Shown in pieces: positions 2,134-53,769 of a DNA stretch of 64,000 nt. Both the position numbers and the translations under genes were made by a program. This stretch comes from an uncultured Clostridia bacterium (GTDB taxonomy: Bacteria > Bacillota > Clostridia > TANB77 > CAG-508). The notes beneath the pieces were generated by a model. That model was not told the origin of the DNA. It did no database searches and worked only from the letters and a program-made list of their open reading frames with translations. The number at the start of each line of letters is the position of its first letter. Position 1 is the first letter of the stretch. The DNA is taken from assembly GCA_934120395.1 (NCBI GenBank), contig CAKOTZ010000002.1, forward strand, positions 33,645-97,644. Direction: 5' to 3'.

Positions 2134-3426
2134 TTAAGCATAAGCTTGTCTTTTCTTAAATCCTAATAAACTTGTAATTTCTGCTTCTGTATTTTTAGCC
2201 TTTTTAGTTTTCTTTGCTTTTTCTTGAGCAATTTGTTTTGCTTGTCTTTCAGCCATTGTTTCACAAATTGCTTTTTGATATACAAAATGTGTATCTTGAG
2301 CAATTTTTGTCCAGTTAAATTCATTCTTCACCTTCAATTTTGCTTGTTTCACAACGCTATCGCATAATTGTGGATTATATAATAGTTCCAAAATAGAATC
2401 TGCAAGTGAATTTGGATTTCCAGCATAGCTTTTCATTCCATTTACTTTATGCTCTACTGTTTCATTTAAACCACCAACATCAGAAACAACTGTTGGAACT
2501 CCTGCAAGCATTGCTTCCAATGCAACAATTCCAAAAGGTTCGTATGTACTTGGAAATACTGCTACATCAGCAACTTTATACATTTTACAAACTTGCTTTG
2601 AGTCTAAGTATCCAGTAAAGTAAACCTTGTTCTCAATACCCAAATATTTAACTTGTGCCTTTAATTCATCAAGCATTCCACCTTTTCCAGCAATTATCAG
2701 TTTGCTATCATGGTATCTATCTAATATTTTCGGCATTGCAGATATTAGATGTTGAACTCCTTTTTCATATACAAGTCTGCCCATAAATAAAATTATTTTT
2801 TCATTATCTAGGGCATATTTTCTTCTAAACTCGTAATCCTTTTCTACATTATTGAATGTCGTTAAATTAACACCATTTGGTACTACATTAATTTTTTCGA
2901 ATGGTAAACCAAATAAACGTTGTAATTCATTCTTCATATAATTACTATTTACTAATACTTCAGATGCTTCATAAGTTAAAAGCCATTCTGTATCATTAAT
3001 ATATCTTTGTACTTCATCATGAATTCCTGAATTTCTTCCTGCTTCAGTTGCATGTATTGTTGCTACCAAAGGAATATTATATGAATTTTTTAATGTTTTA
3101 GCTGCATAAGCAACTAACCAATCATGTGCGTGAATGACATCAAAATTACCCTCTTTTGCAATTATCTCATTTGCCTTTGCAATTAAATTAAAATTCATTT
3201 GCATAATCCAATCAATAAAATTGTTTGGATTAATCATATAGTTATCTACACGGTGAATTTTTACTCCTTTATCATTTTCAAACTCAGGCATATTACCTTC
3301 TCTATATGTTATAACATGTACCTCATGACCATCTTTTATTAATCTCTTAGATAAATCATGAACAACCCTTGCTATTCCTCCCACAATTCTTGGTGGATAT
3401 TCCCATGTTAACATTAAAATTTTCAT
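2134..3426 (-). CDS. Family-4 glycosyltransferase (glycogen-synthase-like, alpha-glucan synthesis)
   Basis: GT4 signatures (MKILMLTWEYPPRIVGGIARVVHDLS...; C-terminal FPSTYEPFGIVALEAMLAGVPTVVSDVGGL). RBS GAAGGGAG 9 nt upstream of the ATG at 3426. The track ORF extends to 3465. Confidence 0.8.
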   Translation of the reverse strand: MKILMLTWEYPPRIVGGIARVVHDLSKRLIKDGHEVHVITYREGNMPEFENDKGVKIHRVDNYMINPNNFIDWIMQMNFNLIAKANEIIAKEGNFDVIHAHDWLVAYAAKTLKNSYNIPLVATIHATEAGRNSGIHDEVQRYINDTEWLLTYEASEVLVNSNYMKNELQRLFGLPFEKINVVPNGVNLTTFNNVEKDYEFRRKYALDNEKIILFMGRLVYEKGVQHLISAMPKILDRYHDSKLIIAGKGGMLDELKAQVKYLGIENKVYFTGYLDSKQVCKMYKVADVAVFPSTYEPFGIVALEAMLAGVPTVVSDVGGLNETVEHKVNGMKSYAGNPNSLADSILELLYNPQLCDSVVKQAKLKVKNEFNWTKIAQDTHFVYQKAICETMAERQAKQIAQEKAKKTKKAKNTEAEITSLLGFKKRQAYA

Positions 3427-27821: not shown

Positions 27822-27897
<76 letters not shown>

Positions 27898-46526: not shown

Positions 46527-47405
46527 TTAGCACCTTGTTTTAATAATTCGTTTGTTCCAATCGAATTTGCCTGCATTATATTGCCGTGGAACTGCAAACA
46601 CTTCTTTGCCTTGCTCTAAAGCATAATCAACCGTAATTAAACTTCCGCTTCTCTTTTTTGCTTCTACCAATACTATTCCATTTGCCAAACCACTAATAAT
46701 ACGATTTCTTCTTGGGAAATTTTTAGCAAGTGGCTTAGTTCCAACTATATATTCACTAATAACAGCTCCATTATTTTCAACTATTTGCTCAAAAATAGCT
46801 TTATTTTCAGGCGGATAAATATTGTCAATTCCAGAACCCAAAACAGCAATTGTTTTTCCTCCCGCTCTTAAGCAACCAATATGTGACCAGGTATCAATGC
46901 CTCTTGCAAGTCCACTAATAACGACAATATCTTTTTTTGCTAGTTCATATGCTAAATCTTGTGCTACTGTTTTTCCATAATTAGAACATAATCTACATCC
47001 AACCATTCCAACTGAAACTCTATTTAAAATATCTTTATTGCCCTTGCAATATATTACAAGAGGCCAATTAGGAATATTTTTTAACTTTTCTGGATATGAC
47101 TGGTCTTGGTAACTTATAATATTTATGTTTTCTTTTTTAATATAAAAAATATAGTTTTCTAGATTTTGTCTATAAATTATATTTTGCACCTGTGATGCTT
47201 CAAAAAAACTAAGCCCATGTCTAATTAAATCATATTTACTTAAATTCCATATCTTTTCAGGACTTTTATAAAATTCTAATAATTTCTTTAAACTATTTAA
47301 ACTTACAGTATCAATTAATCTAGATAACCAAATCCAATATTTATTTTGCATTTTGTTCCTTTCAAAATGCCCCCATTGTATTTTATACAAACTCTTCCCA
47401 AACAA
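46527..47405 (-). CDS. dprA: DNA processing protein DprA
   Basis: GLARGIDTWSHIGCLRAGGKTIAVLGSGIDNIYPPEN. Confidence 0.88.
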   Translation of the reverse strand: MFGKSLYKIQWGHFERNKMQNKYWIWLSRLIDTVSLNSLKKLLEFYKSPEKIWNLSKYDLIRHGLSFFEASQVQNIIYRQNLENYIFYIKKENINIISYQDQSYPEKLKNIPNWPLVIYCKGNKDILNRVSVGMVGCRLCSNYGKTVAQDLAYELAKKDIVVISGLARGIDTWSHIGCLRAGGKTIAVLGSGIDNIYPPENKAIFEQIVENNGAVISEYIVGTKPLAKNFPRRNRIISGLANGIVLVEAKKRSGSLITVDYALEQGKEVFAVPRQYNAGKFDWNKRIIKTRC

Positions 47406-48549
47406 TATTTGCTAAATCTAAACCTTTTTGGCTTAAACAAATTCTATCATTATCAGCTATAATTAATTCCTCTTTTATTAGTTTTTCAATTGTTTCCTTA
47501 AATACTTCAAACATATTAACATTAAATTTTTCAAAAAATTCTTTTGCCGACACTCCATCAAGCTTTCTTAATCCTAGCAAAATATATTCTTGCATTTGAG
47601 TGTATATATTCTGTTTCTCATGAAAAACTATATTATCTTCTTGTTTATCCTTTTTAAAATTATCTATATACTCTTCTATATCTTCAATATTTGAATATCT
47701 TAAGCCATCTGTATATGAATGTGCAGCACTACCAATTCCAATATATTCTTTTTGTTTCCAACAATTTACATTATGTACAGAATAGTAGTTTGGCATTGCA
47801 AAATTAGAAATTTCATAATGATTATATCCTTGCTGTTCTAACCCATTTTTAACTCTCCAATACATTTGTCGTTCTATATCTTCTGTTGGTAAAATTAATT
47901 TACCTGTTTCTATTTCTTCTTTTATTTTAGTTTTATCTTCCACTATTAAGGAATACACAGAAACATGAGTAGGCTTTTTTTCTTTTATAAAATCAAGCAT
48001 ATCGTCTATATCTTTCATATTTTGATTTGGCAATCCAATCATAAAATCAATATTTATGTTTTGAAATCCCGCTTCTTTGGCTAGGTCATATGTATTTAAA
48101 ATTTCATTTTTGTTATGAATTCTGCCTAATATTTCTAAAAGCTTATCGTTTACAGATTGTGCCCCAATACTACAACGATTTATTCCACATTCTCTATATG
48201 TTTTTAATTTGTCTATATTTACTGTTCCAGGATTTACTTCAATTGTAATTTCAGCATTTTTTATTATGTTAAAATTTTCTTTTGTTATATTTAAAATTTC
48301 GGATATGTATTTAGCATCAATATATGAAGGAGTTCCTCCACCTATGTAAATAGTATCAATTTGAGTCTCTTCACACAATTTTTCTTTAACCTGACTTTTA
48401 ATTCCCTCTCCTACTTCTTTTAGTTCCTGTTTCACGCAATTAATATACTCCAGTATTAATTCATTTTTTTCTTCAAAAGAACAAAAGTCGCAATATTTAC
48501 ACTTTTTCTTACAAAACGGGATATGTATATATATTCCTACTTGCCTCAT
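47383..48549 (-). CDS. hemW: Radical SAM heme chaperone HemW (coproporphyrinogen-III-oxidase-like)
   Basis: YIHIPFCKKKCKYCDF: CxxxCxxC plus HemN-like C-terminus. Confidence 0.85.
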   Translation of the reverse strand: MRQVGIYIHIPFCKKKCKYCDFCSFEEKNELILEYINCVKQELKEVGEGIKSQVKEKLCEETQIDTIYIGGGTPSYIDAKYISEILNITKENFNIIKNAEITIEVNPGTVNIDKLKTYRECGINRCSIGAQSVNDKLLEILGRIHNKNEILNTYDLAKEAGFQNINIDFMIGLPNQNMKDIDDMLDFIKEKKPTHVSVYSLIVEDKTKIKEEIETGKLILPTEDIERQMYWRVKNGLEQQGYNHYEISNFAMPNYYSVHNVNCWKQKEYIGIGSAAHSYTDGLRYSNIEDIEEYIDNFKKDKQEDNIVFHEKQNIYTQMQEYILLGLRKLDGVSAKEFFEKFNVNMFEVFKETIEKLIKEELIIADNDRICLSQKGLDLANIVWEEFV

Positions 48550-49406
48550 GCTCTATCTTCCTTTCTTAGTTCTTCCGCTATTTCTCTTATCTTCTTTAAT
48601 CTGTGGTTTACCCCCGATTTTCCAATTGGCTTCTCCAATAATTTTCCCATTTGCTCTAAACTCATATCTGGATTTTCCATGCGTATCCTTGCAATTTCCT
48701 GCAAATTATTTGGAAGTTCATCAAAATGTTTATTTTTTATTAGATATTTAATATCATCTATTTGTAAAACAGAAACATTAATTATTTTATTTAGATTAGC
48801 CGTTTCACAATTTACGATTCGATTAACTTTATTTTTCATTTCCCTCATAACTCTAACTTCCTCAAAATTTAGTACTGCTTTATTTGCGCCTATTAAAGCT
48901 AAAAAATTGGAAATAGCTTCTCCATCTTTTAAATATACTACATAATTTTTTTTCCTTTTTAATAATTTAGAATATATGTTAAATTGTTCTGTTATATAAA
49001 TTATAAATTTTGCATTCTCTTTACTACTTAAAAAAATTTCTAAGTGATATTTACTGTTTGGGTTATTAATTGTTCCCGTTGCCATAAACGCTCCACGCAA
49101 TACAGCCTTTAATATATCTATTTCTTCTATGTTAATATTAGTTAAGTCTATTTTTTCATCATTATGATACTGTGTTTGAAATATTTTTCCTTTTCTAATA
49201 GTCTCAAATGAAATACCTAAATTTTTTAAAATTTTTTGATATCTTTTTAAGTTACTATCATTTTCAGTAACATAACTTATAATATTTCCATCTATTATGG
49301 TATTGCTAGACATATAATAACCATTTAATTCTGCTTTTAGCTGTTCTGTTTGATTCCAATTATTAAAAGCACTCAATTCTTCCTTTATTTCTGCTGAAAA
49401 AGACAT
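48546..49406 (-). CDS. whiA: Sporulation/cell-division regulator WhiA
   Basis: MSFSAEIKEELSAF...; LAGLIDGDG-like repeats plus a C-terminal HTH. Confidence 0.8.
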   Translation of the reverse strand: MSFSAEIKEELSAFNNWNQTEQLKAELNGYYMSSNTIIDGNIISYVTENDSNLKRYQKILKNLGISFETIRKGKIFQTQYHNDEKIDLTNINIEEIDILKAVLRGAFMATGTINNPNSKYHLEIFLSSKENAKFIIYITEQFNIYSKLLKRKKNYVVYLKDGEAISNFLALIGANKAVLNFEEVRVMREMKNKVNRIVNCETANLNKIINVSVLQIDDIKYLIKNKHFDELPNNLQEIARIRMENPDMSLEQMGKLLEKPIGKSGVNHRLKKIREIAEELRKEDRA

Positions 49407-49414
49407 CTATACAC

Positions 49415-50245
49415 CTACTTTTTTCCTACTACAATTCTATTATTACCGCCATAGTCTTTCTTTGAATAAATATTTACATATCCCTCTTTATTTAAAATCT
49501 CAGTTACCGCTTCTCTTTGATTATATCCTATTTCCAAAGCTAAATACCCATCTTTATTTAAATATTCTTTAACTTCATTTGCAATTATACGATAAAAGTC
49601 TAATCCATCTTTTCCGCCATCTAATGCCATTAGTGGCTCATTTTGTACTTCTACATCTAAAGTTTTTATTACTTCTGTTTCTATATATGGTGGATTTGAT
49701 ACAACAATATCATATTTATGATTTATATTTTTAAAAAGATCTGATTCAATAAAATCAATTTTAACATTATTATTTTTTGCATTTTCCTTTGCAATTTTTA
49801 ATGCTTTAATACTTTTATCACTTGCACTAATCTTTGCATTTGGTAAATACTTTGCTAAAGAAATGGCAATAGCTCCGCTTCCTGTACACATATCCAATAT
49901 TTTAATATTCTCTGTATTTTTTGCAATTTCAATTACTTCCTCTACCAAAATTTCAGTATCCACTCTTGGTATTAAAACATTTTCATCAACATAAAAACAT
50001 AAACCCATAAAGTCTTGTTTGTGAGTAATATATTGTAACGGTATCCCATTTTGTTTTTTTATGATAGCCAATTTAAATTTTTCCTTTGTTTTATCATCAA
50101 TTTCTTCTTTATTATGAATAGCCAAATATGTAATGTTTTTATCAATTTCATTGGCTAATATTTTTTTTGCCAGCCATTGAGGATTGTCTATTTTTGCTCT
50201 TCTAAGTTCTTTTATTCCTAACTCTAATAAATCTTGTATTGTCAT
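49415..50245 (-). CDS. prmC: Release-factor glutamine methyltransferase PrmC (HemK)
   Basis: NPPY motif (VVSNPPYI). RBS GGGAG before MTIQDLL. The track ORF extends 20 codons upstream into a terminator hairpin. Confidence 0.85.
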   Translation of the reverse strand: MTIQDLLELGIKELRRAKIDNPQWLAKKILANEIDKNITYLAIHNKEEIDDKTKEKFKLAIIKKQNGIPLQYITHKQDFMGLCFYVDENVLIPRVDTEILVEEVIEIAKNTENIKILDMCTGSGAIAISLAKYLPNAKISASDKSIKALKIAKENAKNNNVKIDFIESDLFKNINHKYDIVVSNPPYIETEVIKTLDVEVQNEPLMALDGGKDGLDFYRIIANEVKEYLNKDGYLALEIGYNQREAVTEILNKEGYVNIYSKKDYGGNNRIVVGKK

Positions 50246-50310
50246 TTTCTCCCACTTTCTTCTAACATATTTTATCATTGCTTTATACAAAATGCAACAA
50301 AACACTAGTA

Positions 50311-50567
50311 AATTACTAGTGTTTTGTATTTATGATTCATAAAATAACATTTCATATAAAGCCCCGCCTTAGCCGTCTAGTAAGAATTTTTAAGGACCTG
50401 TTGTTCACAGGTGGGTGCCCTCTTAAATACTCTTGGGTTTCTTAAATAAATTCAAGCATACACGCCATATCTAAAGTTAGGCTCCCGTTTCTATCTTGTT
50501 GGTTCTAAAAATTCCATCCTGTCACGAACCATGCAGGGAAAATTAATTTCTTTACCTTTATGTTGTA
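50311..50567 (-). ncRNA. Candidate small RNA (class unknown) with its own sigma-A promoter and rho-independent terminator
   Basis: Promoter TTGAAG-N17-TAATAT at ~50575-50603 (minus strand). A GC-rich structured body at 50340-50530 has no ORF longer than 13 codons. Terminator hairpin aacactagtaa/ttactagtgtt at 50311-50337 is followed by a U-run. Confidence 0.35.
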
Positions 50568-50746
50568 TTTATATTACCATATACATTTTTATTCTTCAAG
50601 TACATTTTTTGTGATTTATATGCTACTATTTTTATTTTTATCTTATTTTCTCATTTTCTTTCTTGTTTTTTTATATAAATTATATAATTTTATTATTGGA
50701 CATTTTTAAATTTCTATGCTAAGCTATTTATATATTTTGTTTATTT

Positions 50747-51649
50747 TTATTCACTTAAATCAAATTTAGGAACATACTCTTCTTCATGTTCACCTAATTC
50801 CTGTATATACCCATTTTCCAATTGCAAATCATACATATAATCTTTAACCTCTTCATACTCTTCAATTCTTAATTTGCGATTTAAATTTTCTATTTGTTTT
50901 GCCTTATAGCATGGAAAATACTGTGCCATAATACTAATATATACATTATTATCCATATTCTCTTTTATCCATTTTAAAATTTTTTTTGAATTTTCAACTT
51001 CATTTGGCAATACCAAATGTCTTATAATCATTCCTCTCTGAATTATGCCACTCCTGTCTATTCTAGGCGCTCCTACCTGTCTATACATTTCTTTTAACGC
51101 TTTTGCTGTTATTTCTTTATATTTTGAAATTTTAGAATATTTTAATGCAAGTTCATCATCAAAATATTTGAAATCAGGTAAATATACATCTATATATCCT
51201 TCTAACATTTTTAATGTCTCAATTTTTTCATATCCGTTAGTATTATATATAATTGGCAATGTAAATCCCTTTTCTCTTGCCATTATTATTGCTTCAATTA
51301 TATGCTGTACATATGGAGTTGGACTAACTAGATTTACATTATGTGCTTTTTTTGATTGTTGTTTTAAGAATAATTCTGCCAAATGTTCAACGCTTATTGA
51401 TTTTCCTTTTCCTAATTGACTTATTTCATAATTTTGGCAATAAACACAATTCATATTACAATGTGAAAAAAATATAGTACCTGATCCATTTGTCCCACTA
51501 ATACACGGTTCCTCATAAAAATGTAAAGAAGATAAAGCAATTTCTACTTCATCCTTACATTTACAAAATCCTAATTCGTTATTTGTTCTATTTACTTTAC
51601 ATTCATGAGGACATAAGTTACAACTCTTTAACATTCCCTTCACCCTCAT
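50747..51649 (-). CDS. PflX-like radical SAM protein (COG1313)
   Basis: CNLCPHEC...CNMNCVYCQN cysteine clusters. Confidence 0.75.
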   Translation of the reverse strand: MRVKGMLKSCNLCPHECKVNRTNNELGFCKCKDEVEIALSSLHFYEEPCISGTNGSGTIFFSHCNMNCVYCQNYEISQLGKGKSISVEHLAELFLKQQSKKAHNVNLVSPTPYVQHIIEAIIMAREKGFTLPIIYNTNGYEKIETLKMLEGYIDVYLPDFKYFDDELALKYSKISKYKEITAKALKEMYRQVGAPRIDRSGIIQRGMIIRHLVLPNEVENSKKILKWIKENMDNNVYISIMAQYFPCYKAKQIENLNRKLRIEEYEEVKDYMYDLQLENGYIQELGEHEEEYVPKFDLSE

Positions 51650-52895: not shown

Positions 52896-53594
52896 TTATT
52901 CTTTTATTTCTTTTGCTAGTTTATTAATTGCTTTTGTTTCAATTCTAGATACATACGATCGACTTATTCCCAATATATCCGCAATTTGATTTTGCGTTTT
53001 TGGCTTTTGTCCATAAAGTCCATATCTCCATTCCAATATTAACTTTTCCCTCTCTTTTAATACTGCTGACATCTTTTCATATAATTTTTTTATTTTTATT
53101 TTTAAATCAATTTCATCTTCTATATTTCTTTCTTCATTTTCAAGTACATCAATTAATGATACTTCATTATCATCTTTGTCTTTTCCAATTGGTTCATTCA
53201 AAAAAACTTCTGCTCCTAATTTCTTTATACTTCTTAAATACATTAATACTTCGTTATCAATACATTTAGAAACATACGTTGCTAGTTTTACTCCTTTATC
53301 TGAATTAAAGCTATTTATTCCCTTGATTAAACCAATTGTGCCAATTGATATTAAATCGTCATTATTTACATTGGTGCTTGCATATTTTTTGCATACATGT
53401 GCAACTAATCTCAAGTTCCTTTCTATAAGTATATTTCTAGCCTCTTCATCACCTTGGCTGTATTTCTCTAGGTATAGTTTTTCTTCTTCCGGCGACAACG
53501 GTTCTGGAAACAAAGTATTGTTTGTTATAAATCCAAACATAAATACTGTTGAATTTAGAAAAGTCAACAAGCCAGATATAGAAATAGTTAGCAT
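52896..53594 (-). CDS. sigK: Pro-sigma-K (mother-cell late sporulation sigma factor), intact with no skin-like insertion
   Basis: Hydrophobic pro-sequence MLTISISGLLTFLNSTVFMFGFITNNTLFPEPLSPEEEK aligns with B. subtilis pro-sigK (YVKNNAFPQPLSSSEEKK). Sigma-70 regions 2 and 4 present. RBS GGAGGTG. Confidence 0.85.
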   Translation of the reverse strand: MLTISISGLLTFLNSTVFMFGFITNNTLFPEPLSPEEEKLYLEKYSQGDEEARNILIERNLRLVAHVCKKYASTNVNNDDLISIGTIGLIKGINSFNSDKGVKLATYVSKCIDNEVLMYLRSIKKLGAEVFLNEPIGKDKDDNEVSLIDVLENEERNIEDEIDLKIKIKKLYEKMSAVLKEREKLILEWRYGLYGQKPKTQNQIADILGISRSYVSRIETKAINKLAKEIKE

Positions 53595-53769
53595 AAACAA
53601 GCACCTCCATTTGAACTATACTTTAATATATGTATAGTTTTTTATGAAAGTGCCTGACCCTTAATATTTCTTTTTCAATAATTTATATTTCAAATTTTGG
53701 TTATTCCCTCTTGTTTGTATAGAATAATTTTGATATAATTTGACTATATTAATTCTTAGGAGGTAATTT

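Follow-up and report, generated by a model that had tools for sequence, protein, structure and literature searches.

The 64-kb stretch of DNA analysed here (64,000 nt, hereafter the window) contains, between prmC and a gene for a radical-SAM protein, about 500 nt (50246-50746) to which no gene had been assigned, with minus-strand genes on either side, and the question raised by this locus is what the gap encodes. The original prediction placed a promoter, a GC-rich RNA body and a terminator on the minus strand, all of which are present, and proposed either a member of a known RNA family or a novel small RNA. We consider it nearly certain that the gap is an ssrS gene, which encodes 6S RNA on the minus strand and is equipped with an extended -10 promoter of the housekeeping-sigma type and an intrinsic terminator (Table 1). 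6S RNA is an already known family and the RNA gene found here is an ordinary one, of a kind that protein gene calling does not report.

The gap has no gene called in it, as originally stated, but it is longer than the 440 nt proposed at the time, with prmC most likely starting at ATG 50245, which follows a GGGAG ribosome-binding site, rather than at GTG 50305. The longest prmC reading frame begins at this GTG, which falls inside the 6S terminator, and the 276-amino-acid PrmC called in a matching public contig corresponds to the product from ATG 50245. This human-gut metagenome contig from ENA (93 kb; ERZ27287188) is identical to the window over the 6S locus, and its gene calls leave the same 500 nt empty. 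Within the gap the RNA strand has no ORF of at least 20 amino acids, the GTG-extended prmC reading excepted; the opposite, AT-rich strand has four mechanical ORFs of 24-49 amino acids and one of 52 amino acids. The contrast in base composition with the flanks was likewise recovered, although the body is GC-rich relative to its surroundings only, with a G+C content of 0.38-0.40 over 50350-50549 versus 0.14-0.18 upstream and approximately 0.24-0.29 in the flanking genes.

Elsewhere in the window, a sigma-70-family factor (52896-53600, minus strand) possesses an N-terminal extension that makes it look, by eye, like the sporulation pro-sigma factors; together with WhiA, it suggests a spore-forming member of the Clostridia as the source of the DNA. 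The only other RNA gene found in the window with Rfam and ARAGORN is a tRNA-Thr (anticodon CGU; 27822-27897, plus strand).

Table 1. Features of the 6S locus and of its gene neighbourhood, in window coordinates, and the two 6S genes of a related bin, in coordinates of their own loci.
Feature	Position	Strand	Basis or remark
HemN/HemW-like radical-SAM protein	47383-48549	-	neighbour on RNA strand
WhiA	48546-49406	-	neighbour on RNA strand
PrmC	49415-50245	-	neighbour on RNA strand
Intrinsic terminator	50297-50327	-	14-bp stem (4 G-C pairs), 3-nt loop, then TGCATTTTGT
3' trailer, from Rfam 3' end to terminator	50328-50356	-	pairs with leader in full-transcript fold
6S RNA (SsrS)	50357-50542	-	RF00013 limits; structure kept in relatives
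3' strand of central bubble: GGCACCCA, then 5-bp hairpin CCUGU-GAACA-ACAGG	50397-50419	-	fold
Unpaired 5' strand of central bubble (AACAAGAUAGAAAC)	50487-50500	-	unpaired in Rfam consensus, single-sequence fold and RNAalifold
5' strand of helix P2 and start of 5' bubble strand (GAAUUUUUAGAACC)	50501-50514	-	aligns to Rfam consensus CuGAgCCgA
Predicted 5' leader of primary transcript	50543-50564	-	promoter geometry; putative start about 7 nt after the -10
Extended -10, TGgTAATAT	50571-50579	-	T54, T56, G57, T59, A60, A63 and T64 invariant, 18/18
-35 hexamer, TTGAAG	50594-50599	-	TTG invariant in the alignment of 18/18 relatives (columns T36, T37, G38)
Radical-SAM protein	50747-51649	-	neighbour on RNA strand
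6S genes of 'Clostridium sp. 28_12'	L022 2424-2616; L050 1417-1608	+ (both)	

When the whole window was scanned against Rfam 15 at gathering thresholds, two RNAs were returned: the tRNA at 27822 and, on the minus strand, a match to RF00013 (6S/SsrS) running from 50542 to 50357, which scores 98.1 bits (gathering score, 46.4; E-value of 1.9e-18 for the whole window and of 1.7e-20 for the gap). This match covers positions 1-187 of the 187 positions of the model and is not truncated. A permissive scan of 50200-50800 (E<=1) gave no family besides 6S, and at that E-value Rfam likewise found no further element in the AT-rich DNA (200 nt) that precedes the promoter. The original prediction had itself named an Rfam match to a housekeeping RNA as the outcome that would speak against novelty, and RF00013 at 98.1 bits is such a match; of the two options that it proposed, the known family was borne out, with 6S as that family, and the novel small RNA was not. 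Nothing that was observed speaks against the assignment to 6S. The original prediction had recognised no 6S signature in the RNA, yet the GGCACCCACCUG motif that it quoted is a hallmark of the 3' bubble and belongs to the 6S consensus. GGGCACCCACC is also present in the RNA body. A novel small RNA of no described family, a reading that was based on this non-recognition and in favour of which testing provided nothing, has practically no chance of being correct, given an end-to-end 6S match at more than twice the curated threshold and relatives that score as 6S and keep the 6S pairing scheme.

These relatives were obtained by scanning a species-representative genome collection with GGCACCCACCTGTNNNNNACAGG, which resulted in 104 loci spread over many phyla, in line with the conservation of this motif across 6S RNAs. 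Approximately 28 of the 104 loci, mostly from uncultured Clostridia of human and animal guts, can be aligned with the RNA of the window and are 67-78% identical to it; no sequence in this collection is identical to the window at the motif, and the best relative reaches 78%. All seven related loci that were scanned with Rfam, five of which were also part of the structure test, represent full-length 6S RNAs (79-115 bits), and a 6S score of 98.1 bits was obtained for the public contig, whose locus is identical to that of the window. RNAalifold, applied to 28 sequences with the Rfam structure not supplied, found 11 pairs with compensatory changes and a consensus comprised of helix P2, an open 5' bubble strand, a 3' hairpin and an apical stem. 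With the Rfam structure placed on an 18-sequence alignment, 85.2% of the cells were standard pairs, versus 34-47% in slid controls (3' partners moved by 1-3 columns), and 17 pairs were doubly changed, versus 1-9 in the slid controls; none of 500 shuffles reached the observed values. All five helices contribute to this pair conservation, the closing stem alone with six doubly changed pairs. The GAAUUUUUAGAACC segment is nearly invariant in the 28 sequences.

Several observations were made on individual relatives. In the bin of 'Clostridium sp. 28_12', two contigs each have a full-length 6S gene, and the two genes differ (scores of 82.8 and 84.6 bits; L022 and L050 in Table 1). The pair may be paralogous, as 6S-1 and 6S-2 of B. 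subtilis are, or two strains may be mixed in the bin. Four loci (L102, L072, L061 and L096) have an insertion of 21-27 nt in the apical loop (alignment columns 103-127), and L102 with this insertion still scores as a full-length 6S RNA (79.3 bits). A TwoAYGGAY RNA (RF01731; 51.8 bits versus a gathering score of 43) is located at 3126-3281 (plus strand) of locus L071, approximately 600 nt from the 6S gene of that Clostridia bin.

Two 6S genes are present in some Firmicutes, as they are in the bin just mentioned, and the visible part of the genome is limited to 64 kb; the gene could on these grounds be a diverged second copy, either of the 6S-2 type or decaying, with the main 6S gene located elsewhere in the genome. 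We regard this as improbable in view of the high full-length score, the conserved promoter, the 3'-bubble hairpin combined with an open 5' strand, which are features of the 6S-1 type, and the near-invariant template region, which argues for purifying selection.

Folded as a single sequence, the 186-nt RNA displays a closing stem (CCCUGC pairing with GCGGGG), helix P2 (GAAUUUUUAG pairing with CUUAAAAAUUC), a 5' bubble strand with 18 unpaired nt, a 3' bubble strand with a 5-bp hairpin, and an apical stem-loop. The rod-like 6S layout, with a closing stem, a large central bubble and an apical stem-loop, is found both in this fold and in the 28-sequence RNAalifold consensus, and so is the trait of the 6S-1 subtype, a short 3'-bubble hairpin that is preformed while the 5' strand is open. 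This hairpin (CCUGU-GAACA-ACAGG, at 50411-50397 of the minus strand), also part of the RNAalifold consensus, had been correctly spotted in the original prediction, except that its loop was given as read on the plus strand. The CCUGU/ACAGG stem was fixed by the search pattern and could therefore not show covariation; for this reason, and because it clashes with two Rfam pairs, the hairpin was left out of the pair counting. In the window's RNA, 7 of the 51 pairs of the Rfam structure are not canonical, and most of these are concentrated where the closing stem has its outer end. The core fold is only modestly more stable than shuffles (z = -2.27; equalled by 6 of 200), a common outcome for AU-rich RNAs with bubbles between their helices, and the fold of the full transcript, from promoter to terminator, is clearly more stable (z of -4.08; equalled by 0 of 200 shuffles).

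Judged from its sequence signals, the RNA has its own promoter and its own end signal, as befits a stand-alone transcription unit. The -10 hexamer TAATAT (50576-50571), preceded by a TG (50579-50578), is separated from the -35 hexamer by a spacer of 17 nt. This promoter agrees with the consensus at 8 of 12 positions, below the cutoff of the consensus scan (9/12), which consequently did not list it and found four other sites, at chance level (4 found versus 4.7 expected); matches of 8/12 are common in such AT-rich DNA. The promoter is nevertheless judged to be real, because all 18 aligned sequences share the TTG of the -35 and the T-TG-TA--AT of the extended -10, although the AT-rich DNA around these elements does not align. 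Thus the promoter of the original prediction exists and is conserved, while its description as near-consensus was overstated and its placement at approximately 50575-50603 was 4 nt off.

The predicted end of the transcription unit is marked by the perfect terminator hairpin with its T-rich tail, which had been predicted about 10-14 nt away (50311-50337) from where it was found (50327-50297). A terminator scan gave two sites, corresponding to one palindrome read on both strands, versus 0.2 expected from shuffles. The leader is 12 nt longer in the window than in most relatives, and in the full-transcript fold the 5' leader and the 3' trailer pair, resulting in a longer closing stem; by analogy, both would be trimmed from the primary transcript. 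In most relatives a T-run directly follows the closing stem and there is no trailer (alignment columns 296-330), so that the closing stem itself may act as the terminator. A trailer of approximately 30 nt and a separate hairpin terminator are found in the window and in one relative, L047.

L047 is also the one locus, out of 31 related loci searched, in which PrmC and WhiA are located beside the 6S gene: when the prmC, whiA, radical-SAM and DUF5662 genes were compared by tblastn with the 104 fetched loci, only L047 matched. A functional link between the RNA and prmC, the gene named in the original prediction, is rejected, as the gene order is absent from 30 of the 31 related loci. The RNA does immediately precede prmC, in the same orientation; the terminator stem contains only four G-C pairs and is followed by an interrupted U-tract, so that some read-through is conceivable; and in E. 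coli a common transcript covers ssrS and ygfA, the gene downstream of it (as cited within PMC3879012). These points would favour a cis-acting leader, a riboswitch or attenuator controlling prmC-whiA. That such a leader is present is extremely improbable: the gene neighbourhoods are unrelated in 30 of 31 loci, unlike the behaviour of a cis-regulator, no Rfam family that would represent a cis-regulator of prmC matches in the gap at E<=1, and a candidate promoter for prmC, read by eye, is located after the terminator.

This possible promoter of prmC itself (50262-50297, minus strand) consists of TTGCAT and, 17 nt further, TAAAAT with a preceding TG; it overlaps the tail of the 6S terminator and is separated by 17 nt from the ribosome-binding site of prmC, which follows it. 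With 8 of 12 consensus positions, it falls under the scan cutoff.

With the 6S gene regarded as a unit of its own, a looser connection to its neighbours can still be envisaged. In the lineage of the window, and in L047, the leader and trailer of the 6S gene may have lengthened, extending the closing helix, and a weak, separate terminator may have been gained just upstream of prmC-whiA; read-through could then couple the expression of the release-factor methyltransferase and WhiA to that of 6S, as in E. coli ssrS-ygfA. We consider this scenario unlikely.

6S RNA resembles an open promoter and associates with the primary-sigma RNA polymerase holoenzyme; upon nutrient upshift, a short product RNA (pRNA) is made from the 5' bubble strand, P2 is unwound, the 6S RNA is refolded and the polymerase is released (PMC8876501; PMC3299989). 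In RNAs of the B. subtilis 6S-1 type, the short 3'-bubble hairpin is already formed and the 5' strand is open (PMC8876501). If it behaves like its homologues, E. coli 6S and B. subtilis 6S-1, the mature RNA of approximately 186 nt would form a rod, its closing and apical stems enclosing a bubble that imitates a melted promoter, and would sit in the active-site cleft of the primary-sigma RNA polymerase. Such occupancy of the polymerase would hold back part of the housekeeping transcription as growth slows. On the return of nutrients, the polymerase would transcribe the 5' bubble strand into a short product RNA, approximately 5'-GGUUCUAAAAAUUC, which would unwind helix P2, allow the 6S RNA to refold and set the polymerase free. 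For the window's 6S RNA, polymerase binding as well as the synthesis and start site of the product RNA are thus expectations by analogy, with GAAUUUUUAGAACC (50514-50501) as the predicted pRNA template and a start at C42 that would correspond to nt 40 of B. subtilis 6S-1 (PMC8876501). Refolding with the predicted template strand blocked gave shifted pairings of 3-5 bp and no clear central bubble collapse helix, and the details of release may for that reason differ from those of B. subtilis 6S-1.

The finding matters little beyond annotation. It accounts for 500 nt in which no gene had been called, and it allows the annotation to be amended by an ssrS gene and by a prmC start at ATG 50245. The approximately 28 diverged 6S genes from gut Clostridia, which share an invariant promoter, could be useful as a small data set for comparisons; they raise no new question.

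Among the known systems, the closest likeness is to the Firmicutes 6S-1 (BsrA of B. subtilis), with which the window's RNA shares the rod of closing stem, central bubble and apical stem, the open 5' strand, the preformed 5-bp 3'-bubble hairpin, the GGCACCCACCUG motif and a promoter of the housekeeping type. Compared with RF00013 and 6S-1, it is AU-rich (41% G+C), its apical loop is short beside those of its nearest relatives, its leader is 12 nt longer than in most relatives and its separate hairpin terminator lies approximately 30 nt past the closing stem, where most relatives have a T-run; no clear collapse helix was predicted. The 3' bubble strand of E. coli 6S is unstructured before the product RNA is made (PMC8876501). 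At the level of gene organization, the locus resembles E. coli ssrS-ygfA in that a protein-coding gene of the same orientation immediately follows the 6S gene, but this downstream gene encodes 5-formyltetrahydrofolate cyclo-ligase in E. coli and is prmC in the window, where a hairpin terminator separates it from the 6S gene. The 6S RNA of C. acetobutylicum (sCAC1377), which belongs to another organism and another gene neighbourhood and is likened here by description and not by sequence, also has its own promoter and a rho-independent terminator, and is highly expressed (PMC3879012). Northern analysis of this RNA gave several bands, read by the authors as processed forms (PMC3879012), which agrees with the leader and trailer predicted for the 6S RNA of the window.
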